The notes under the pieces were generated by a model. The model had not been told where the DNA came from. It saw only the letters and a program-made list of their open reading frames with translations, and made no database searches. Positions 18,656-30,234 of a DNA stretch of 64,000 nucleotides are shown here, one piece after another. A program made the position numbers and the translations under genes. Origin of the DNA: an uncultured Spirochaetaceae bacterium (GTDB lineage: Bacteria > Spirochaetota > Spirochaetia > SZUA-6 > DRHE01); the NCBI GenBank assembly GCA_964588355.1, contig CAZPPB010000005.1, positions 218 to 64,217 of the forward strand, in the 5' to 3' direction. Position 1 is the first letter of the stretch; every line of letters starts with the position of its first letter.

Positions 18656-19945
18656 CTACAACGGCAGAATTCTGTAGAAGCGGGACTGCTCGGAGATACC
18701 CGATTCCGCGCTCACCTCGCGAAGCGCCTTTCTGGCCTGCTCTTCCCTGGCCTCATCCACCAGGACGTACAGGTCGGAAGGCTCGCTGGGATCTTCCCAT
18801 TTCTGATGCACCGATTCGATATTGATGCCGTTGTCTGCCAGACAGCCGGTAACCGCCGCCCAGATCCCCGGTCTGTTCGCTGTTATGAAATGGAAGAAGT
18901 AGCGATACTCCATCTCCTTCTCCGGATACAGCTCAAGAGCCCGGGAAGGATCGAAGGGATAGCCGCCGCGGCGGTCATGCAGCACCAGACTCTGCACCAG
19001 ATCTCCCAGATCCGAAGCCACCGAAGAGGCGGTCGCATTCGCCCCGGCGCCCCGGCCCAAAAACAGGGCCGGCCCGAGATAGTCACATTCCACGAATACC
19101 GCATTGACCTCGTCCCGCACCAGGGCGAGGGGGTGGCGAGCCGGGATCAGGGCGGGAAACACGGTGACCGAGGGCTTGCCGTCGATGAGGATAGCCGAAG
19201 CGATCAGCTTGATGGCAAATCCTGCCGACGCTGCGAACTCGATCTCTCCGGGGGTCACCGTGGTGATTCCCTCACAGAGGATGTTGCGGTAGTCCACCCA
19301 GCCGCCGAAGGCAAAGGCGGCCAGAAGACTGATCTTGTGCGAAGCATCTCCGCCGCCGACATCCAGGGTCGGGTCGGCTTCGGCGAAGCCTGCATCCTGA
19401 GCCTGCTGCAGCGCTTCGGCGAAGGGCAGCTGCTGCTCACTCATCCGGGTGAGGATGTAGTTGGAGGTCCCGTTCAAAATGCCCAGGATCTTATCGATCC
19501 GGTTGCCCACCAGGCTCTCGCGAACGATCTTGATGATCGGGATCCCCCCCCCGACCGCCGCCTCGAATTTGAGGTAGACCTGCTTCTCCCGCGCCAGTTT
19601 GAACAATTCGGCGCCGCGGAGGGCCAGGAGCGCCTTGTTCGCGGTGATGACATGTTTTCCCGCTTCGATCGCGGATTGGATGATCTCATAGGCGACATCG
19701 GTACCGCCGACCAGCTCGATCACGACCTTGATGTCCTGCTGTTCGACGATGCTGCGGTAGTCATCCACCAGCAGCTCCCGGGGGACCAGAGCTTGAGCAG
19801 CGGCGGTGTCGATCTCCGCGATCCTCGCGATCTCCACTGAAGTTCCCATCTTGCTGGCAAAATGGCTTCCGTTCCGGCTCATCAGTTCGTAGAAGCCCCT
19901 GCCCACCGTGCCCAGCCCGACCAGGCCTACCTTTACTCTTTCCAT
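18656..19945 (-). CDS. hom: Homoserine dehydrogenase with C-terminal ACT domain
   Basis: GLGTVG, VITANKALLA, FEAAVGGGIPII, LNGTSNYIL, EADPTLDVGG. Confidence 0.95.
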   Translation of the reverse strand: MERVKVGLVGLGTVGRGFYELMSRNGSHFASKMGTSVEIARIAEIDTAAAQALVPRELLVDDYRSIVEQQDIKVVIELVGGTDVAYEIIQSAIEAGKHVITANKALLALRGAELFKLAREKQVYLKFEAAVGGGIPIIKIVRESLVGNRIDKILGILNGTSNYILTRMSEQQLPFAEALQQAQDAGFAEADPTLDVGGGDASHKISLLAAFAFGGWVDYRNILCEGITTVTPGEIEFAASAGFAIKLIASAILIDGKPSVTVFPALIPARHPLALVRDEVNAVFVECDYLGPALFLGRGAGANATASSVASDLGDLVQSLVLHDRRGGYPFDPSRALELYPEKEMEYRYFFHFITANRPGIWAAVTGCLADNGINIESVHQKWEDPSEPSDLYVLVDEAREEQARKALREVSAESGISEQSRFYRILPL

Positions 19946-22900
19946 ACGTCCTCCACCAATGGATGTTCACGAACCTCCGCCAGAACCCGATCCTCCGCCG
20001 ACAGGGTGATGTGGGGCGAGGCCTTGATCACGACCTCCCCGCTCGCCCCATTTCCCCGGACGTGGAAGTACACCCCGCAGTCACCGGGTTTGTCGACTAT
20101 GAAATCCCGCAGCCGCAGGAACTGCTCCTCATTGCCCTCCGCGGAGGCGAAACGCAGGTGCACCGCCCGCGCCTGTTTATCCTTGAGTTCCTCGGGATCG
20201 AGCAGGGATTCGACCAGAAGCTTGGGTTCCCCCCTGCTGTTGTCGATACGCCCCCGAGCCACCATCACGCTGTCCCCGACCAGCCGCTCTCTGGATTTCT
20301 CGAAGACATCGGAGAACAGCACCAGCTCAACGGTACCGCGGAAATCCTCCAGTTGAGCGAAGGCCATCCGGCGGCCCGTCCTCGTGGTGATCTCCTTGAT
20401 CTCCTTGAGAATGCCTATCACCGTATAGGTCCTTTGGGCGGAACAGGCGGTCAGCCGGCTGAGATCGAGGTTACCGTGATTCTGTATGTGATTCCGATAT
20501 TTGTCGAGGGGGTGGCCGGAAAAGTAGAAACCGAGGTTCTGCTTTTCATGGGTGAGCTTCTCGAGAGCCGGCCACGGGGGACAGGGCTCCATGATCAGGG
20601 GTGATTCGTTTTCCTCCAGGGGATCGAAAAGAGTGGTCTGCCCGTACTTCTGGATCTCTTTGAAGCTGTTCACGGTTTCCAGGATCCTGTCCAGATTGTG
20701 CATCAACACGGCCCGACCGGTACCCAGATTATCGAACAAGCCGCAGCGGATCAGGGTCTCCACGACCTTGCGGTTCACGGTTTTCAGATCCAAACGTTTC
20801 AGGAACTCCAGAAGATCTTTGAATGCCCCTCCCTGGTTTCGCTCCTCCACGATGTGATCCACCGCCGCACTGCCGACGTTTTTGATCCCCCGGAGTCCGT
20901 ATACGATCTTGCCTTCCCGCACCGTGAACTCCTGCTCGCTCACATTGATATCAGGAGGCAGCACCTCCAAGCCCATGGTCCGGGCTTCGGCGATATACTC
21001 CGACAGTTTGTCCGTGGAATTGATCTCATTCGTCAGGTTGGCCGCCATGAACTCCGCCGGGTAGTTGGCCTTGAGATAGGCGGTCTGATAGGCCAGCAGG
21101 GAGTAGGCCGCCGCATGGGACTTGTTGAATCCGTATCCGGCAAAAGGAACCAGAAGCTCGAAAATTTTTTCCGCCTGGGCGCCGGAGTAGCCCTTGGCCG
21201 CCGCCCCTTTCAGAAATTTGACCTTCTGCCGGGCCATGACATCTACCTTCTTCTTGCCCATGGCCCGGCGCAGGATGTCCGCCTCGCCGAGGGAATAACC
21301 CGCGACCTGGCGGGCGATCTCCATCACCTGTTCCTGATACACGATGACCCCATAGGTCTCCTCGAGGATCGGCTCGAGCTCCGGCAGAGGGTATTGAATG
21401 CGCTTTTTTCCGTTCTTGGCATCGATGAACTGGTCGATATACTCCATCGGGCCCGGACGATACAGGGCGTTCAAGGCGATCAGGTCGGGGATCGATGTCG
21501 GTTTGGACTTTCTCAGAATTTCCTGCATACCCTGGCTTTCAAACTGGAAGATGCAGGTGCTTCGCCCCTCCCCGAGGAGGCGAAAAGTGGCGGGGTCATT
21601 TTCGGGGATACGGTCGATTTCCATGTTCACCCCACGCCGCTTGAGAAGGTCAATGGTGTTTTTGATTATCGTGAGGGTTTTCAGGCCCAGGAAGTCCATC
21701 TTCACCAACCCGCAGTCTTCCAGATAGTCCATCGAGTACTGGGTGGAAACCGTCTCGGTCTTCGGGTCCCGATACAGGGGAACGTAGTGGGTCAATTCCT
21801 GCTGCCCTATCACGATCCCCGCCGCATGGGTGGAGGCGTGCCGATGCAACCCTTCCAGCCTCAGGCTGACGTCGAGAAGTTTCTTGTAGTTCTCACCCAG
21901 CGAAGTCATACGGGCAAGCTCCGGGTCCACCTTCATCGCTTTGCGCAGGTTCATCTTCGGTCCCAGGGGCACTCTCTTGGCTATAGCGTCGGCCTCGGCA
22001 TAGGGGATATCCAGAACCCGGGCCACATCCCGAATCACGGCGCGGGCCTTCAAGGTTCCGAAGGTGATGATCTGTCCAACCCGGTCGCTTCCATACTTGC
22101 GCAGCACGTAGTCGATGACCGCCGGCCGTCCCTCATAGCAGAAATCGATATCGAAATCGGGCATCGACACCCTCTCCGGATTGAGGAATCGTTCGAACAG
22201 CAGCCCGTACTTGAGGGGATCGATGTCGGTGATCTTCAGGGCATAGGCTGCAAGCGACCCGGCGCCGGACCCCCTGCCCGGACCCACGGGGATTCCGTTT
22301 TCCCGGGCGTAGTGGATGAAATCCCAGACGATCAGGAAATAACCGGTATAGCCCATCGTGTTTATCACGGACAACTCGTAGTCCAGACGCTCCCGTATCT
22401 CCGGGCCGGATTCGGAATACCGCTCGGCCAGTCCGCGATGGGCCAGTTCAGACAGGTAGCTGCCCAAAGTGTAGCCCTCGGGAACCTCGTAGTGTGGGAG
22501 CAGAGGACCCGGAAGGGGGATTTCCAGATCGCACATATCGGCGATCACCCGGGTGTTCGTCAAGCTCTCGGGAAATTCGGGAAGCGCCCGGGCCATCTCC
22601 TCCCTGCTCTTGAAGTAGAACTCCGGATAGGCGAACTTGAGACGCTTGCCCTCGCTGACCTTTTTTCCTGTGCCGATGCAGATCAGGATATCCTGGGAGT
22701 AGGCGTCCTCCTTGTCCGTATAGTGGATATCGTTGGTGGCAACTGTGGGGATGCCGGTTTCCCGAGCCAGCTCCGACAACCCGCTGAGAATGGTGCGCTG
22801 CTCCGGTATGCCCTGATATTGCAGCTCCAGGTAGAAATTGCCCCGCCCGAACAGCTCGTCATAAAATCGTGCCTTATCCCGGGCCGCCTGCTTCTGGCCG

Positions 22901-23349
22901 TCCAGGATGAGCCTCGGTATCTCCCCGCCCATGCATCCGGACAGGGCTATAAGGCCCCGGCTGTGCCGCTGGAGAAGTTCGTCGTCGATGCGGGGTTTGT
23001 AGTAGAAACCCTCCACATAGGAGAGAGTGGACAGCTTCAGCAGATTCTGATAGCCCGTCACATCTTTTGCCAATAAAACGATATGGTAGTAACGGGCTGA
23101 CCCTTCGGTCCCGGACTTGCTGAACCTGGAACCCGGAGCGATGTAGAACTCCGAACCGATGACCGGCTTGATCTCCTGTTTGCGGCACTCGAGATAGAAC
23201 TTCAAGCTTCCGAACATGTTGCCGTGATCGGTGAGTGCAAGGGCAGACATGTTCAGCGCCTTGGCTTTGGCAACCAGACTTTCTATGGATGCCGCTCCGT
23301 CAAGAAGCGAGAAATCGGAGTGATTGTGAAGGTGTACAAAATCTGACAT
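19933..23349 (-). CDS. dnaE: DNA polymerase III alpha subunit
   Basis: PHP motifs HLHNHS, TDHGN, NDIHY; GRGSGAGS; MPDFDIDF; KMDFLGL; FNKSH. Confidence 0.98.
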   Translation of the reverse strand: MSDFVHLHNHSDFSLLDGAASIESLVAKAKALNMSALALTDHGNMFGSLKFYLECRKQEIKPVIGSEFYIAPGSRFSKSGTEGSARYYHIVLLAKDVTGYQNLLKLSTLSYVEGFYYKPRIDDELLQRHSRGLIALSGCMGGEIPRLILDGQKQAARDKARFYDELFGRGNFYLELQYQGIPEQRTILSGLSELARETGIPTVATNDIHYTDKEDAYSQDILICIGTGKKVSEGKRLKFAYPEFYFKSREEMARALPEFPESLTNTRVIADMCDLEIPLPGPLLPHYEVPEGYTLGSYLSELAHRGLAERYSESGPEIRERLDYELSVINTMGYTGYFLIVWDFIHYARENGIPVGPGRGSGAGSLAAYALKITDIDPLKYGLLFERFLNPERVSMPDFDIDFCYEGRPAVIDYVLRKYGSDRVGQIITFGTLKARAVIRDVARVLDIPYAEADAIAKRVPLGPKMNLRKAMKVDPELARMTSLGENYKKLLDVSLRLEGLHRHASTHAAGIVIGQQELTHYVPLYRDPKTETVSTQYSMDYLEDCGLVKMDFLGLKTLTIIKNTIDLLKRRGVNMEIDRIPENDPATFRLLGEGRSTCIFQFESQGMQEILRKSKPTSIPDLIALNALYRPGPMEYIDQFIDAKNGKKRIQYPLPELEPILEETYGVIVYQEQVMEIARQVAGYSLGEADILRRAMGKKKVDVMARQKVKFLKGAAAKGYSGAQAEKIFELLVPFAGYGFNKSHAAAYSLLAYQTAYLKANYPAEFMAANLTNEINSTDKLSEYIAEARTMGLEVLPPDINVSEQEFTVREGKIVYGLRGIKNVGSAAVDHIVEERNQGGAFKDLLEFLKRLDLKTVNRKVVETLIRCGLFDNLGTGRAVLMHNLDRILETVNSFKEIQKYGQTTLFDPLEENESPLIMEPCPPWPALEKLTHEKQNLGFYFSGHPLDKYRNHIQNHGNLDLSRLTACSAQRTYTVIGILKEIKEITTRTGRRMAFAQLEDFRGTVELVLFSDVFEKSRERLVGDSVMVARGRIDNSRGEPKLLVESLLDPEELKDKQARAVHLRFASAEGNEEQFLRLRDFIVDKPGDCGVYFHVRGNGASGEVVIKASPHITLSAEDRVLAEVREHPLVEDVWKE

Positions 23350-23442: not shown

Positions 23443-24333
23443 TTACAGTAAATCCAGGCTGCGGATGTTGATCTTTTCGAGAAAGGAGCGAAACAGGCGA
23501 AGGGAGGTGGCCGCCCTGTAGCGGCCTTTCGGGTTATCCGCAACCTGATCGGTCAGAGCATCGCCCAGTTCGCGTGACAGGGTATCGATGAGTCTCGCCG
23601 GCATAGGGAGGTTGGCGCTTTTCAAACGCTCCTCCAATACGGGCATACGAAATACCGGTGTTTCCAAGCCACCTAAGCAGAAGTGCAGTGTTTCGAGGCT
23701 GCCCTTGGGGAAACGGGCTACACCGGCGAAGCTCAGGGTGGTCGCGAATCCCGAGCCGCCGTGTACCTTGCGGGTTACGGCGAAATCCCATTCCTCCAAG
23801 GGCACCCGGATTCGGGTAAGAATTTCACCTGGACGCAGGTCCGGCAGATTTCCTCTGCCGAAAAACTCCCCCACCTCCACCCAGCGGGTCGAGCCTGCGG
23901 TTCGCAGCTCCAACTGGGTATCGATGACGCTCAAAGCCGGCAGGCTGTCACCCCGACAGGCCCTCAAGGAGATATTGCCGCCGAGAGTAGCCAGGTTGCG
24001 AATCCCGGGTGTAGCGATCTTCGAAAGTGTTTCGAACAGAACCGGGGGAAGAACGTTGCGTCCGATGCTGAGAATCCTGGATAGATCCAGGACCGAGCCG
24101 ATGTCTAGGTAGCGCTGCCCCCGGGAGATCCGGTTCAGCTCCTGGACATTCCCCAGGTAGATCACCTTCTGCGGCAGGTTCAAGGGGCGGCCGCTGCCCA
24201 TCTGGGCCTGCCTGGCTATCTCGGTTCCCCCGGCGTACAGCAGCGCTCCGGGATTTCGGGTGAACAGACGCAGCGTTCCCCCGAGACTCTTGGGGCGAAA
24301 TACCCTAACTTCTTTCAACGCGTCTTCGGCCAT
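23443..24333 (-). CDS. Xanthine dehydrogenase/CoxM-family FAD-binding subunit
   Basis: AGGTEI, IRNLATLGGNI, GDSLPAL, GEILTRIRVP. Confidence 0.85.
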   Translation of the reverse strand: MAEDALKEVRVFRPKSLGGTLRLFTRNPGALLYAGGTEIARQAQMGSGRPLNLPQKVIYLGNVQELNRISRGQRYLDIGSVLDLSRILSIGRNVLPPVLFETLSKIATPGIRNLATLGGNISLRACRGDSLPALSVIDTQLELRTAGSTRWVEVGEFFGRGNLPDLRPGEILTRIRVPLEEWDFAVTRKVHGGSGFATTLSFAGVARFPKGSLETLHFCLGGLETPVFRMPVLEERLKSANLPMPARLIDTLSRELGDALTDQVADNPKGRYRAATSLRLFRSFLEKINIRSLDLL

Positions 24334-24799
24334 ACCTTCGTTTCCTGCTGCTTCGTTCGACAACGGAATTCACGATCCTTCTGTAGCTGCCGCAGGAGCA
24401 GAGATTGCCCGTAAGAGCCTGAAGGATCGCCTCCTTCCCCGGCTCCGGGTCGGACAACAGCAAGGCCGCCAGGGCCACCTGCATTCCCGAGGAACAGAAT
24501 CCGCAGCGGTACACGTCACAGTCGGGTAATTTTTTTCGAATATCCGCGAAGGATTTGAGGCTGTGAATCCCCTCTATTGTCACGATCTCCGCATCGCTAA
24601 GGGTAAAAGCCGGGATCAGGCAGGAGTTGACAGCGACGCCGTTCATGAGCACCAGGCAGGCTCCGCACTCTCCGCGGGCACAGCCTTCCCGGGTTGCCTT
24701 CAAACCAAAGTCGCAACGAAGAACGTCCAACAGGCGGGCACCGGGATGGGCCTGAAGCAGCACGGGCTGTTCATTCAGGATGAAGCGCAGCTTTATCAC
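24305..24799 (-). CDS. Xanthine dehydrogenase/CoxS-family 2x[2Fe-2S] subunit
   Basis: GCARGECGAC...NSCL, CGFCSSG, GNLCSCGSY; GTG start overlaps the upstream TGA (GTGA). Confidence 0.88.
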   Translation of the reverse strand: MIKLRFILNEQPVLLQAHPGARLLDVLRCDFGLKATREGCARGECGACLVLMNGVAVNSCLIPAFTLSDAEIVTIEGIHSLKSFADIRKKLPDCDVYRCGFCSSGMQVALAALLLSDPEPGKEAILQALTGNLCSCGSYRRIVNSVVERSSRKRRYGRRRVERS

Positions 24800-26892
24800 G
24801 TTTCCAGGCACTGTTGGATAACCTCCGCCGTGATCGGCACCTGATCTATATACAATCCGGTAGCCTGACAAACCGCCTCCGCATAGGAGGCGGGAACCCC
24901 GAGGTAGGGAAGATGTTCGAAGCCCTTCATCTCAGCACTTTGGCTCTCTAATAGACGGATCTGGATCTCGGGCAGCTCGGTTGCAGAGGGAACCAGATCG
25001 CCGGCGAAACAGGCAGTCAGCGCAGAGGCAGCTGCGGCCGTGTATCCCAACAGCCGGCTCGAACCCAGACAGCGAAGGATTTCCCCCTCCAACATTCCCA
25101 GTATCGCGGTTCGATCCCAGACCGCTCCCGTTTCTACCGCCATCCAGATACCCCGGCAGGTGCTCTGGAAGGTCACCGGATCCAGTTCCACTTCGACGAC
25201 CGTGGCAGCCCAGGAAAGATCCCCCGCCTCCTCACCGGCTCTGCGCTTTCCCTGTGCATGTCGATCACCTCCAAGCCCGTGCTGCTGCTCCGCAGAGAGG
25301 CTTCTGCGCACCTCGATCGGCAAGGCAAAACCTTTGCGCTTGCGCTGAATGCTCCAGCAGCACTGTTCGAGCAGGGGGAGAGCAACCGCGACGACCCGGG
25401 AGAGGATGGTGGGGCCCGTGTCGGGCACCTCCCGAGTATCCACGGGCTGCACCGTGATTTTTTTAGGATCCAGCCCGAGAAGCTCCGCCGCCCTGTGAAT
25501 GAGGATTCCATGGATTCCCATTGCAGAGTCCACCAGGGAGGTGTAGATCCGCAGGCGCCGATTCCTGTCGAGAACGAGTTTCATCGCCGAGCTCTTGGGA
25601 GCCGGCTCGAGGTTGTGCAGATCTGCCGACCACCCCCGCCCATCCTGATAAGCAAGGGCCAGTCCGATTCCCCGCAGGGGATAGGTACCCTGATCGATGG
25701 TTTTCCTGCGTTTTTTTACAGCGGCATAGGCTGAGTATTTCCGGATGAAGTCCGACAGACCGGTAACCTCCTCCAACACCGCGAGCGCCGAGGCCGGCCC
25801 CTCCTTCCGTCCCGCTTGCGCCAGGTTCTCCCTCTTCCAGTTGAACGGATCCAGCTGGGCGATCTCCTCCAGCCGGGAGCTGTGCAGTTCCGCCGCAAAA
25901 AACGCCTGGGATAAACCTGAGGCTCGAAACGGACCGATCGGTGGAAAATCGGTCGCCACAGTTCGCCCGGTCACCTCCAGGTTCGGGATCTTGTAGGCTC
26001 CCCAGGCGCAGTGGACGGCCCGATGCAGGGCTTCACTGTTTTTTGGGGCGTAGCAGCCTCCGTCCATGAGGATCTGCACCCGCACCGCCATCGTACCACC
26101 ATCCTGATCCAGGGCGGTTTGATGGCGGATCTGAAACTGCGGACCCTTGGGAGAACAATGCAGATCCTCATCTCGGTCGTACACCAGAACCACGGGTTTC
26201 TTCGCAGTGTAGGCGAGCAAACCCGCCTGGGCGGCAACCAGAAACGAGGACAGCAGTTTGCCCTCCGTGCTGTTTCCGATCGGCACCGCCACCACCCTGA
26301 CCTTTCGGGGCGGCAGATTCAGACAGCCAGCGATCGCCAACTGCAGGCCGAAGGGATCCTGGGTAGCGGCATGAACGGTGAGGGACTTCCCGTCCCAGTC
26401 GGCCACTGCCCCCAGCGTGTCGGGATAGTAATGTTCCTGCCGGGCGGTGCGATACTCCCCCTCCACGATCTGCTCGGCCAAACTGAAGGCCAGATCCACG
26501 TCCCCGTGAGCTAGGTTGATGATCTGAGCCTCCCGATACGGTCCCGACAGGTCTTTGTACTCGACGGGGGGTTGCTCCTCATAGGACAGCTCGACCGCAG
26601 AGGATAACCGCCCCAACACCTCCGCATTGGGTCCGCAGAACAGAAGCAGAGGCTCTCCCAGGTAGCGGACCTTGGATTTCACGAGGATGGGCAAAGAGTA
26701 CCCGGCATAGGAAAGAACGCTCGTACCGGGGATATCCTGCTGGCCGACGCAGAAGTATCCCCGAGGCAGAATCGGAACACCGATGGCGGTGACAGTTCCT
26801 TTACGAAAGGGGGCGCGGAACACCGCAGCCCGGAGAGATCGTTTTGGAGCAATGTCGCTAATGAAGGGTTGCATCATGGCCTGACCCGTCAT
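24796..26892 (-). CDS. Xanthine dehydrogenase/CoxL-family molybdopterin-binding subunit, motifs degenerate
   Basis: Family layout recognisable (QEHY, GAYKIPN, FRASG, RGIG, DT..P..GPT..SR) but GGGFG, GQG and KGxGE equivalents are altered. Start uncertain. Confidence 0.78.
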   Translation of the reverse strand: MTGQAMMQPFISDIAPKRSLRAAVFRAPFRKGTVTAIGVPILPRGYFCVGQQDIPGTSVLSYAGYSLPILVKSKVRYLGEPLLLFCGPNAEVLGRLSSAVELSYEEQPPVEYKDLSGPYREAQIINLAHGDVDLAFSLAEQIVEGEYRTARQEHYYPDTLGAVADWDGKSLTVHAATQDPFGLQLAIAGCLNLPPRKVRVVAVPIGNSTEGKLLSSFLVAAQAGLLAYTAKKPVVLVYDRDEDLHCSPKGPQFQIRHQTALDQDGGTMAVRVQILMDGGCYAPKNSEALHRAVHCAWGAYKIPNLEVTGRTVATDFPPIGPFRASGLSQAFFAAELHSSRLEEIAQLDPFNWKRENLAQAGRKEGPASALAVLEEVTGLSDFIRKYSAYAAVKKRRKTIDQGTYPLRGIGLALAYQDGRGWSADLHNLEPAPKSSAMKLVLDRNRRLRIYTSLVDSAMGIHGILIHRAAELLGLDPKKITVQPVDTREVPDTGPTILSRVVAVALPLLEQCCWSIQRKRKGFALPIEVRRSLSAEQQHGLGGDRHAQGKRRAGEEAGDLSWAATVVEVELDPVTFQSTCRGIWMAVETGAVWDRTAILGMLEGEILRCLGSSRLLGYTAAAASALTACFAGDLVPSATELPEIQIRLLESQSAEMKGFEHLPYLGVPASYAEAVCQATGLYIDQVPITAEVIQQCLET

Positions 26893-26950
26893 TCTACTTT
26901 CACCCGCACGACGTGGCAATAGCAAGGTGAAAGCAGGCAGGAGCGGCGGG

Positions 26951-28138
26951 TTAATGCTTCTTGTAGAAGCGGGCGCCCAGTTCCTTTATCGCGGTAATGA
27001 CCCGCTCGACCTGTTCATCTTCCAGATCGGGATAGATCGGCAGGCTTATTGTCTCCAGGTAGCAGCGCAGAGCTGACGGAAAATCCCGCTCCTTGAGATC
27101 GTAGGTGTCGCGGTAGTAGGGCATGATGTGCAGGGGAATGAAGTGAACCGACACACCGATGCCCCGTTCCATCAGGGCGTCCACGAAACCGTCCCTGTCC
27201 ACGGTCAGCTTGGAGAGTACCAAACGGATCTGAAACAGATGCCAGGAGTGGGCTGGATCGCCCGCCGGCAGTCTCAGGTAGTCCAGTCCCTGCAAACCCC
27301 CGCGATACATCCGGGCGATCCGCTCCCGGGCCAGATAGAACCCTTCGGACTTCCGCAGCTGCACCCGCCCCAGGCTGGCTGCCAGATCCGTGAGATTGTA
27401 TTTGAATCCCGGCTCCCGCACTTCGTAGTACCAGGAGGCAGCCCTGGAGGTATACCGGTTCCACACGTCCCGGTCGATCCCGTGCAGCCGCATCATGCTC
27501 ATGCGGCGGGCCAGCTCCCCGTCACGGGTCACCACCATGCCCCCCTCCCCGGTTGTAATCGGCTTGGTGGCGTAGAAGGAGTACACCCCCATGGCACCGA
27601 CGGTTCCGGGTGCCTTCTCCTGGCCTTCACGGGGAAGACAGTGGGCCGCATCCTCGATGACCGTGGCTCCGTGAGCCGCCGCCAGGTCCAGGATCGTGTC
27701 CATACGGCAGGGAAGACCTCCAACATGCACGGGGATCACGGCAGCGATCGAAGGATCGTCGGCAAAGGCCTTCTCCAGACCCTCAGGACTGATATTGCAG
27801 ATGTCCTCCTCGATATCTACGAACAGAGGATCGGCGCCCAGGTAGCGGATCACTTCCGCGGTGGCGGCAAACGTATAGGGGGTGGTGGCCACCCTGCTTT
27901 TCTCCCGAACACCGGCGGCCTCCAAACAGAGGTGAAGCCCCGCGGTGGCCGAGTTGACCGCCAGGGCGTGCTCCACTCCTGCCCGGAGCGCAAACTCCCG
28001 TTCGAACTGCAGCGTCACCTCTCCGGTAGTCAGCCACCCGCCGCGCAGGACCGAAAGGACCGCCTCCTCCTCTTCCCGATCGATGGAGGGTCTATAGAAG
28101 GGGATGAAATCGGGGACGAAATCAGTGGGCCGGTTCAT
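26951..28138 (-). CDS. DegT/DnrJ/EryC1/StrS PLP-dependent sugar aminotransferase
   Basis: AVNSATAGLHL, IEDAAH, SFYATKPITTGEGG (PLP lysine), GFKYN. Confidence 0.93.
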   Translation of the reverse strand: MNRPTDFVPDFIPFYRPSIDREEEEAVLSVLRGGWLTTGEVTLQFEREFALRAGVEHALAVNSATAGLHLCLEAAGVREKSRVATTPYTFAATAEVIRYLGADPLFVDIEEDICNISPEGLEKAFADDPSIAAVIPVHVGGLPCRMDTILDLAAAHGATVIEDAAHCLPREGQEKAPGTVGAMGVYSFYATKPITTGEGGMVVTRDGELARRMSMMRLHGIDRDVWNRYTSRAASWYYEVREPGFKYNLTDLAASLGRVQLRKSEGFYLARERIARMYRGGLQGLDYLRLPAGDPAHSWHLFQIRLVLSKLTVDRDGFVDALMERGIGVSVHFIPLHIMPYYRDTYDLKERDFPSALRCYLETISLPIYPDLEDEQVERVITAIKELGARFYKKH

Positions 28139-29603
28139 CTTCGGGCACCAGGAGGGTGGGAACGATCTCTTTGAGGGTCTGTCGGAGCGCGTTCCGGTTG
28201 CGGTAAACCTGCGCCTTCCGGTCGTTATAAAAGCAGATCGGCCGCAGCCGATCGATGACCCCCTCCAACTGCCCGTTCAGAGCGTAGTGGCGGTCGAGCT
28301 TGAGGATCTTCGGGTATTCCGTGGATTTTGCCCGATCCCCGTTGCTCCACAGGCTCTCCACCAGCTTTTCGCCGGGGCGAAGGCCGGTGTAGACGATCGG
28401 GATCTCCTCCCGGGGTTCGTAGCCGTAGAAACGCACCATCTGCTCGGCCATTTCTTTGATCGATACCGGTTCCCCCATATCGAGCAGATACAGGCCCCGC
28501 GGCTCTCCGACCCCGCCGGCTTGAAGCACCAGACTCGAGGCCTCCGGGATCGTCATAAAGAAACGCCTGCTCTCCGGATCTGTGACCGTAACCGGTCCGC
28601 CCTTGAGGATCTGGCTGCGGAACAGGGGCAGGATACTTCCCCGGGAACCGAGAACGTTGCCGAAGCGCACGACCAGAAACACTTTGCCGGGACTGTCCTG
28701 CCGCAGCACCAGCTCTTCGGCGATCAGCTTGGAAGCCCCGTATACGCTGTTTGGATCTACCGCTTTGTCCGTGGAAACCAGGAGGAAGCGTTCGACCTCC
28801 GCGGCCAGGGCCGCGTCGACTATATTCTTCGTCCCGAATACGTTATTTTTTACAGCCTCCACGGGATTGGCCTCGAGCATTGGAACGTGCTTGTGAGCGG
28901 CTGTGTGAAACACCACATCCGCCCGGGTCCGTTCAACGATGTAGCGCATGAAGTCCCGATCCTGAAGCTCTCCCAGGATCGGCACAATCGTGGCCCGCTC
29001 TCCGACACCCTCCTCCTGGAGAAGACGCAGCTCCCGTTCGATCTCATAGATGCTGTTCTCGCCGTGTCCGAACAAAAACAACCGCTCCGCCCCGCCGGAC
29101 AGCAGCTGCCTGCTGAGCTCGGCACCGATGCTGCCCCCCGCCCCGGTCACCAGAACTCGTCTGCCCCGTAGATAGGCCAGGCTCTTTTTCAAATTGACCT
29201 GGACCGGATCTCGGGTAAGAAGATCCTCCGGATTGATCTGGCGGGCCTGGATCAGGTGTGCTTCCCCGTCGAAGATCTGGGAGATCCGGGGTACGAAGCG
29301 GATGCGCACAAATCCGGCCTGGACCAGAAGCCGGAAGATACGCTTCAACTGCTCCCTACTGGCCCCGGGGATGGCGATGATCGCCTCGTCGGCGGGAGTT
29401 GTCTTGAGCAGTTCGACAACCTCCTCTATCGGACCGAGAACCGGGGTGGAATGAATGCGGGATCCGATCTTCTGCGGATCGTCGTCCAGGAAAGCAACAA
29501 CCCTGCCGAAAATCCCCTTTTTGCGGATCTCCCGGGCCAGGGTGATCCCGGTGATGCCCGCCCCGATGATATATATTCTGTTGTCGGATCTGCGCGGAGT
29601 CAT
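28122..29603 (-). CDS. CapD/PglF-like nucleotide-sugar 4,6-dehydratase lacking the N-terminal membrane region
   Basis: FLDDDPQK, TGAGGSIG, AAHKHVP, STDKAV, YGASK, RFGNVLGSRGS, GLRPGEKL. Confidence 0.9.
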   Translation of the reverse strand: MTPRRSDNRIYIIGAGITGITLAREIRKKGIFGRVVAFLDDDPQKIGSRIHSTPVLGPIEEVVELLKTTPADEAIIAIPGASREQLKRIFRLLVQAGFVRIRFVPRISQIFDGEAHLIQARQINPEDLLTRDPVQVNLKKSLAYLRGRRVLVTGAGGSIGAELSRQLLSGGAERLFLFGHGENSIYEIERELRLLQEEGVGERATIVPILGELQDRDFMRYIVERTRADVVFHTAAHKHVPMLEANPVEAVKNNVFGTKNIVDAALAAEVERFLLVSTDKAVDPNSVYGASKLIAEELVLRQDSPGKVFLVVRFGNVLGSRGSILPLFRSQILKGGPVTVTDPESRRFFMTIPEASSLVLQAGGVGEPRGLYLLDMGEPVSIKEMAEQMVRFYGYEPREEIPIVYTGLRPGEKLVESLWSNGDRAKSTEYPKILKLDRHYALNGQLEGVIDRLRPICFYNDRKAQVYRNRNALRQTLKEIVPTLLVPEDEPAH

Positions 29604-29700: not shown

Positions 29701-30234
29701 TCAGCTGGAAGTTGGCTGATCCAATGCCTTTTCCAGAGAGTCGAAGCCGAAATCGATCAGGAAGGAGTCCTCGTACAGCTCCAGGCGAATCCGTGCCCGC
29801 CCCTTGCGGCGATCGACCTTGACCACCCGGCCTTCCATCCCCTTCAAAGGCCCGGAGATCACTCGGATCCGATTGTCCTGATCGAAGAACACCCTGGACC
29901 TCTGAACGACCTCGCCGTAGGAGAGAAAGTGGAGAAGGATCTGCCGATCTCGAGCGCTGAGCGGTTCGATATGCTGATTGTCCTTGAGATAGCGCAGAAA
30001 TCCGGGGATCCTCCTCAGCGCCCCGTACAGCGTCGCTGAGACTGATTCAGCCTGCAGGAAGAGATAACCCGGGAAGATAGAAGCCACCGAGTTCTTCCAC
30101 TCGCCCCGGCGACGGATGCGCAGGGCTCTCCTGGGCCAAAACAGCTGTTCCGCCGGAGCCTGGAGAACCTTGTCGGCTTGTCTGATGTACTGCTGTTCTT
30201 TTCCGGTCCGCACCTGGATTACAAAAAGAGCCAT
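29701..30234 (-). CDS. loaP: NusG paralog, LoaP-type antiterminator
   Basis: VRTGKE, IFPGYLF, ISGPLKGMEG and a basic KVDRRKGRA loop in the KOW domain; heads polysaccharide genes; a separate housekeeping nusG is present. Confidence 0.75.
   Translation of the reverse strand: MALFVIQVRTGKEQQYIRQADKVLQAPAEQLFWPRRALRIRRRGEWKNSVASIFPGYLFLQAESVSATLYGALRRIPGFLRYLKDNQHIEPLSARDRQILLHFLSYGEVVQRSRVFFDQDNRIRVISGPLKGMEGRVVKVDRRKGRARIRLELYEDSFLIDFGFDSLEKALDQPTSS

Follow-up and report, generated by a model that had tools for sequence, protein, structure and literature searches.

The question raised by this locus is whether a complex built like a xanthine dehydrogenase (XDH) can be retained by selection after its large subunit has lost the molybdenum cofactor (Moco), and what such a complex might then do. 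The DNA is a stretch of 64,000 nucleotides from an uncultured Spirochaetaceae bacterium (GenBank assembly GCA_964588355.1, contig CAZPPB010000005.1, positions 218 to 64,217 of the forward strand), referred to as the window and numbered from its first letter. A first-pass annotation, made from the letters and a list of open reading frames (ORFs), had described an XDH-like set of three genes with a degenerate molybdenum site. The gene set was recovered on the minus strand with both ORFs and Pfam domains and consists of a large subunit (L, 24796..26925, longest ORF 709 aa), a small subunit for two [2Fe-2S] clusters (S, 24305..24871) and a flavin adenine dinucleotide (FAD)-binding subunit (F, 23443..24363). 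On the evidence set out below, the trio is, slightly on the side of probability, a Moco-free flavin/iron-sulfur complex linked to an amino-sugar operon.

The membership of the trio in the XDH family was established at the level of domains and fold. L was matched by the Pfam models MoCoBD_1 (4.6e-51) and MoCoBD_2 (6e-15), S by Fer2_2 and Fer2, and F by FAD_binding_5 (2.4e-32). The best NCBIfam models for the three proteins were of the PucD/PucE/XdhA type, but all scores stayed far under the equivalog cut-offs, with 184 against 784 bits for PucD. An AlphaFold2 model of L was obtained with a predicted local distance difference test (pLDDT) score of 83.5 and a predicted template modelling (pTM) score of 0.86. 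In a Foldseek search this model aligned with TM-scores of 0.80-0.84 to xanthine oxidoreductases, the aldehyde oxidoreductase (AOR) of D. gigas, 4-hydroxybenzoyl-CoA reductase (4-HBCR), PaoC and quinoline oxidoreductase (Qor). As modelled, L keeps the whole fold of the XDH family.

In folds and subunit set the trio is therefore alike to the three-subunit bacterial enzymes of this family (PucD/E/C, XdhA/C/B, 3hrd, 1rm6, 1t3q and PaoABC 5g5g), and it also retains their eight Fe-S cysteines and their FAD motifs. It differs from them in the motifs that hold Moco, in the column of the catalytic glutamate and in the Gln of the QCGFCTPG signature of S. It further falls under all NCBIfam equivalog cut-offs, and its family persists in genomes where the genes for Moco synthesis were not found.

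In enzymes of the XDH family, Moco is bound by the GGGFGGK, FRGFG and GQG loops and the Glu of KGxGE serves as the catalytic base. These motifs were mapped on L by HMMER alignments to solved structures, using the residue numbers as printed for human xanthine oxidoreductase (XOR, 2e1q), and the three loop substitutions that had been read by eye were confirmed. GNSTEGK (residues 217-223, 26257..26277, minus strand) stands where nicotinate dehydrogenase and human XOR have GGGFGGK, with N, S, T and E at the positions of G797, G798, F799 and G800 and with Leu224 at that of the Glu following the motif (E802/803). FRGFG is replaced by FRASG (residues 333-337, 25915..25929, minus strand), where R913 is retained, G914 has become Ala and F915 Ser. 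The E/D-x-GQG loop, EMGQG in XOR, reads DSAMG (residues 466-470, 25516..25530, minus strand), with Met in place of Q1041.

The fourth motif, KGxGExP, is replaced by KGFEHLP (residues 667-673, 24907..24927, minus strand). Upon searching with the C-terminal 150 residues of L, all four pairwise alignments to enzymes of solved structure (4-HBCR 1rm6, 7dqx, 8gy3 and Qor 1t3q) aligned His671 (codon 24913-24915) with the catalytic Glu and Glu670 with the Gly before it, without a gap; this placement rests on these sequence alignments and on MAFFT alignments. The histidine originally proposed for the catalytic position is thus found there, and the Glu of KGFE aligns with the Gly before it and not with the catalytic base. 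Among the orthologues of L the catalytic column is occupied by H, K, Q, N, D, E or R, and it is the acid one residue before it that is conserved.

The same genome encodes five other large subunits of the XDH family (C200:2390-4852, C113:2938-5619, C43:148-3564, C64:14470-16728 and C85:3-926), and all of them carry GG[GAS]FGGK, FRGFG and GQG. As these paralogues are canonical, the motifs of L cannot be put down to base composition or chance. One of the five is a fused form of 1139 aa, which also contains the QCGFCTPG signature of the small subunit.

The other two subunits had been taken as intact, and for the cysteine clusters and the FAD motifs this is correct. All eight cluster Cys columns are present in S, and F retains AGGTEIA, of the GGT(D/E)L type, and ATLGGNIS, of the T(I/L)GGN type. 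The description does not hold for the whole of S, however, since it reads RCGFCSSG where canonical subunits read QCGFCTPG, Arg122 (24506-24508) replacing the Gln. In XOR this Gln contacts the pterin. The signature QCGFC[TI]PG was present in 7/7 canonical small subunits examined (five from the same genome and two from canonical relatives), whereas every S examined in the degenerate family to which the trio belongs has another residue than Gln at this position and QCGFCTPG was never seen. With the Gln of S and the motifs of L both replaced, the two predicted walls of the Moco pocket are changed together. As a separate observation, the last Cys pair of S in a Treponema-like genus (g8; L070, L071, L072 and L079) is C-x-P and not C-x-C, so that the C-terminal cluster lacks one ligand there.

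A gene set with so many altered residues could be a decaying paralogue of the real xanthine dehydrogenases of this genome, of which five canonical large subunits are at hand, and the rate of evolution of the trio is indeed about double that of its neighbours. Orthologues of L were found from 95% down to about 40% identity, and the replacement residues are shared by those from 95% to about 56% identity (P0004-P0029) in the form of GN[ST][TM]EGKLL, FRA[SA]G, VDxxMGI and KGF[ED]xLP. Among these residues, several show no or almost no variation; looser variants occur in the more distant P0032-P0037. In a Nei-Gojobori comparison of the window with three unsaturated orthologous loci, the ratio of nonsynonymous to synonymous substitution rates (dN/dS) was 0.20-0.23 for L, 0.18-0.19 for S and 0.18-0.21 for F, compared with 0.07-0.12 for dnaE, hom and the PseB-like and PseC-like genes in the neighbourhood and 0.16-0.19 for recG. 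The trio is under purifying selection, about twofold relaxed with respect to most neighbouring genes.

The reading frames are, moreover, intact and interlocked. The start of L is probably ATG 26892 or ATG 26874, giving 698 or 692 aa in accordance with the lengths of orthologues. Its stop codon TGA (24798-24796) overlaps the probable start of S, GTG 24799-24797, as GTGA, and the homology of S begins at that GTG. F probably starts at ATG 24333, which is preceded by GAAGG, and overlaps S by 29 nt. A decaying pseudogene is ruled out by a dN/dS of about 0.2 and the conserved substitutions, and decay of a spare paralogue is, with the same substitutions in the orthologues and the synteny kept across the class, extremely improbable. 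The first-pass annotation had named canonical orthologues beside a decaying copy as the outcome that would overturn its reading; the orthologues instead share the substitutions.

The conservation extends well beyond the close orthologues. An exhaustive phmmer search yielded 150 representatives at 50% identity, and 148 of the 178 full-length proteins compiled lack GG[GAS]FGGK. Most of these 148 read xxxLDGKLWY and xFAGFGL (with the Arg gone), have no GQG, and show PSxLSRNxT and often KGIGELP. Those members that have a name all come from the Spirochaetota (Spirochaeta, Spirochaetales, Treponema and Treponemataceae), and in the databases they are labelled ‘molybdopterin-binding subunit’ or ‘molybdopterin-dependent oxidoreductase’. 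The order L-S-F was found in 21/21 loci fetched. A search of genome contigs for related loci matched close Spirochaetaceae metagenome-assembled genomes (MAGs) only.

A maximum likelihood tree was made of 67 large subunits and rooted on canonical XDHs; it was a quick search, in which several Treponema-like rows formed long branches. All 44 degenerate large subunits fell in one clade (support of 100 in the Shimodaira-Hasegawa-like approximate likelihood ratio test, SH-aLRT, with a stem of 0.55), separate from 18 near relatives with canonical motifs. The clade of the window is nested within the degenerate clade (support 98-99). The trio thus belongs to a variant of the XDH family that occurs across the class and had not been described.

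The supply of Moco was compared with the distribution of this variant by searching the same 401 Spirochaetota genomes with the family profile and for MoaC. In the Treponema-like family f2 the family profile was found in 50/50 genomes and MoaC in 0/50. Four smaller families showed the same picture, with the profile in 3/3 genomes of f3, 2/2 of f6, 1/1 of f8 and 2/2 of f10, and MoaC in 0/3, 0/2, 0/1 and 0/2 respectively. In two families with canonical motifs, the profile was found in 16/17 genomes of f19 and 24/38 of f25, and MoaC in 15/17 and 24/38. Searches of four complete genomes with a degenerate trio, namely those of T. pallidum, Borrelia anserina and two Treponema-like species, did not find MoeA_N, MoaE or the MoaA C-domain either.

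For the copy in the window the matter is different. A check for Moco biosynthesis genes had been proposed, and in its own genome MoaC was found, so that cofactor supply gives no support for a Moco-free state of this particular copy. A lack of Moco synthesis in this genome was rejected, as MoaC is present together with the five canonical large subunits. We infer the loss of Moco from the window's copy from its position in the tree and the state of its motifs, not from cofactor supply. The earlier suggestion of a Moco-free complex is nevertheless favoured by the conserved substitutions, the nesting in the degenerate clade, the persistence of the family in genomes without visible Moco genes and the loss of the signature in S.

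Several observations weigh against it. Moco is evidently available in this organism, which has MoaC and five paralogues of the Moco type, and MoaC occurs in 16/20 genomes of the window's family f1, the four without it being incomplete MAGs; the canonical paralogues in these genomes would explain its presence in most of them. The clade of the window is the least degenerate one, as it retains QEH, the Arg of FRGFG and a remnant of LSR. It further retains an Arg aligned with the substrate Arg of XOR (R880/881) and a conserved acid beside the catalytic column. Finally, two trios with canonical motifs occur in genomes without visible Moco synthesis: L075 in the complete genome G380, where MoaC, MoeA_N, the MoaA C-domain and MoaE were not found, and L077 in genome G374, where MoaC was the only gene searched for and was not found. 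The absence of Moco genes is thus an imperfect proxy for a Moco-free state. Both of these loci (G380:C1:2644000-2657000 and G374:C35:7000-15949) are L-S-F trios with TGGGFGGKEDY, AFRGFG, GQG and QCGFC[TI]PG. Beside the trio of L077 lies a single ORF (L077:384-3272, minus strand) that matches both small- and large-subunit queries, an S-L fusion.

Taken together with cofactor-competent S and F subunits, these points would fit an L that still binds Moco or a variant of it, such as the cytosine dinucleotide form, in a non-canonical pocket, with altered hydroxylase or reductase chemistry and with Glu670 as a shifted base. This is unlikely, however, as side chains of N, S, T and E occupy the glycine-rich loop around the cofactor and the Gln of GQG is a Met. 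The catalytic column is free to vary, and S is without the signature that all canonical partners have kept. The clade is also nested among proteins of genomes where Moco synthesis genes were not found, and relatives scoring 539-595 bits are present in genomes that are 92-95% complete and have no MoaC (G422 and G429).

In T. pallidum a cluster annotated as Cap5D, SpsC, ‘conserved hypothetical’, ‘quinoline 2-oxidoreductase’ (O83119) and ‘XDH family subunit M’ has the same five-gene order on one strand as the window and belongs to the same degenerate clade of the tree. Its L differs in having fully scrambled motifs, where that of the window is altered less, and its S lacks the Cys of the N-terminal cluster, where that of the window has all eight. 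MoaC, MoeA, MoaA and MoaE were not found in the T. pallidum genome, unlike that of the window, which has MoaC. A search of the literature on this ‘quinoline 2-oxidoreductase’ locus, and for molybdoproteome surveys covering Treponema or Borrelia, gave nothing useful.

The trio of Borrelia matches that of the window in L-S-F order and in sizes. Upon comparison with hhalign, the profile of the wide degenerate family aligned to the Borrelia-like L over its full length (578 columns, 93.4% probability, E 2.4e-7), against a probability of 3% with the canonical profile and 0.1% with the narrow profile of the window clade. The Borrelia-like trio is far more degenerate than that of the window: sequence comparison revealed no Moco motif retained in L, both the GGT and TxGGN motifs are lost from F, and S has lost four of its Fe-S cysteines. 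The last of these losses is shared with T. pallidum, as in the S subunits of T. pallidum (L059:9270-9737) and of the Borrelia-like loci (L060-L063) the N-terminal plant-type 2Fe-2S cluster has lost its four Cys, whereas the C-terminal one retains its four. A normal electron path from Mo over Fe-S to FAD looks impossible in these trios. As far as can be read from the proteins' sequences, the comparison shows a graded loss within the family, from the window clade over Treponema and T. pallidum to the probable members in Borrelia.

In B. burgdorferi the corresponding genes, bb_0554-bb_0556, are co-transcribed and are required in ticks and mice and for resistance to reactive oxygen species; the name xdhACB has been proposed for them (Phelan et al. 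2023, PMC9993122). The same authors note that biochemical confirmation of the enzyme was not achieved (PMC9993122). Such genes persist in reduced genomes, even though the Borrelia-like trios have no Moco motif in L, no FAD motifs in F and half of the S cysteines missing, and B. burgdorferi needs them in both hosts (PMC9993122). On this view the trio would be a pseudoenzyme complex without redox activity, serving in structure, regulation or sensing, its cofactor sites being relics lost at lineage-dependent rates. We regard this as improbable. Strict conservation of all eight Cys and of the FAD motifs is seen in the genome of the window and in most others, and S and F are under the same purifying selection as L, as is predicted for a working electron-transfer chain.

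The best indication of the trio's function comes from its neighbours. Upstream of L, on the same strand, lies a PseC-like sugar aminotransferase of the DegT family (26951..28138), scoring 352 bits with the NCBIfam model PseC, under the cut-off of 423. It is preceded by a long UDP-sugar 4,6-dehydratase of the PseB/FnlA/CapD-like type (28122..29603, minus strand, NCBIfam), which overlaps the aminotransferase by 17 nt and corresponds to the gene named Cap5D in T. pallidum. The head of the operon is formed by a NusG paralogue of the LoaP type (29701..30234, minus strand; 147.9 bits with antiterm_LoaP, above the cut-off of 125). The dehydratase has an extra Rossmann-like region at its N-terminus (residues 5-117) with weak matches to models of Rex and of sugar transferases. 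No membrane segment was noted in it; it resembles the long forms of CapD/PglF, yet is apparently soluble.

The order LoaP, dehydratase, aminotransferase, L, S and F, on one strand and with near-constant spacing, was found in 27/35 loci of the degenerate family including that of T. pallidum, and in the same 27/35 count of loci the aminotransferase is directly upstream of L on the same strand. In at least 17 loci LoaP precedes the module, and in L066 and L080 it is found immediately before L. The arrangement occurred in 0/2 canonical relatives examined. As in the LoaP-controlled operons for polysaccharides and secondary metabolites, a LoaP-type NusG paralogue heads a co-directional run of genes here. 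The cargo is different, and consists of the dehydratase/aminotransferase pair and the XDH-like trio, with dnaE and further housekeeping genes added in this lineage.

The first-pass annotation had placed the trio just upstream of dnaE. This position is correct (dnaE at 19933-23349, with no terminator-like site in the intergenic stretch between F and dnaE), but it is not conserved, being specific to the lineage, and the conserved partners lie upstream of L. dnaE follows the trio in 16 loci of the degenerate family, mainly Spirochaetaceae MAGs and L076 and L081, and the adjacency was not seen in the Treponema, T. pallidum or Borrelia loci compared. It was consequently rejected as a clue to function.

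Elsewhere in the genome of the window a NeuB-type synthase (C223:3796-4176, cut by the contig end) was found, as well as four Maf-like proteins of 566-697 aa with an MptE-like domain (C1:28862-29368, C1:89932-90420, C1:91671-92120 and C62:11013-11525). This suggests a capacity for glycosylation of flagellin with nonulosonic acid, encoded away from the PseB/PseC-like pair. In T. denticola, filament assembly depends on a pseudaminic-type nonulosonic acid, bearing an unusual acyl group, that decorates the flagellins (PMC13439194, PMC9481697). By guilt by association, a role in the metabolism of amino sugars or nonulosonic acids would be the best functional lead for the trio. The link is not universal, as the Borrelia trio has no LoaP, PseB-like or PseC-like gene alongside, which counts against this part of the proposal.

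The following mechanism is consistent with these data. The trio would form an XDH-fold heterotrimer of a monophyletic branch specific to spirochaetes, in which L no longer binds Moco. In this genome S should be able to hold two [2Fe-2S] clusters and F to hold FAD, and because these sites are retained the complex is most likely a flavin/iron-sulfur redox module. The former Mo subunit would survive as a remodelled subunit under selection, for ligand binding or as a scaffold, and the complex would not be expected to hydroxylate purines or aldehydes. The trio is predicted to be transcribed as the tail of the LoaP-led operon, behind the UDP-sugar 4,6-dehydratase and the 4-aminotransferase, and given this position it probably takes part in the synthesis of a modified amino sugar or is coupled to it. 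In treponemes the product would be a nonulosonic acid of the pseudaminic or legionaminic type on the flagellins. Both the redox activity and the sugar link are thus things that we infer for the trio.

A more specific version of this proposal can be put forward tentatively, as a possibility with the greater part of the odds against it. The former Mo pocket may have been rebuilt as a new active or ligand site, the trio carrying out a novel redox conversion of a nucleotide amino sugar or of its acyl decoration, for example the hexanoyl-type group of the nonulosonic acid of treponemal flagellin. The xdhACB of Borrelia would then be a stripped-down descendant that does not act on purines.

For the family as a whole, the database name ‘xanthine dehydrogenase family protein molybdopterin-binding subunit’ is probably wrong about the chemistry. 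The locus of the Lyme disease agent has been read as a xanthine dehydrogenase that forms uric acid (PMC9993122), which would be unlikely chemistry if the family is Moco-free. If this is true, a gene set that the 1.1-Mb genome of T. pallidum retains, and that Borrelia needs in ticks and mice, would have a function yet to be described. In addition, the trio would be a clear example from nature of a metalloenzyme of complex build that has shed its catalytic cofactor yet retained its electron-transfer subunits, and the graded series from the window clade to Borrelia would provide material for the study of cofactor loss. The conserved link with LoaP and amino-sugar genes is a concrete lead that may be followed in tractable treponemes.

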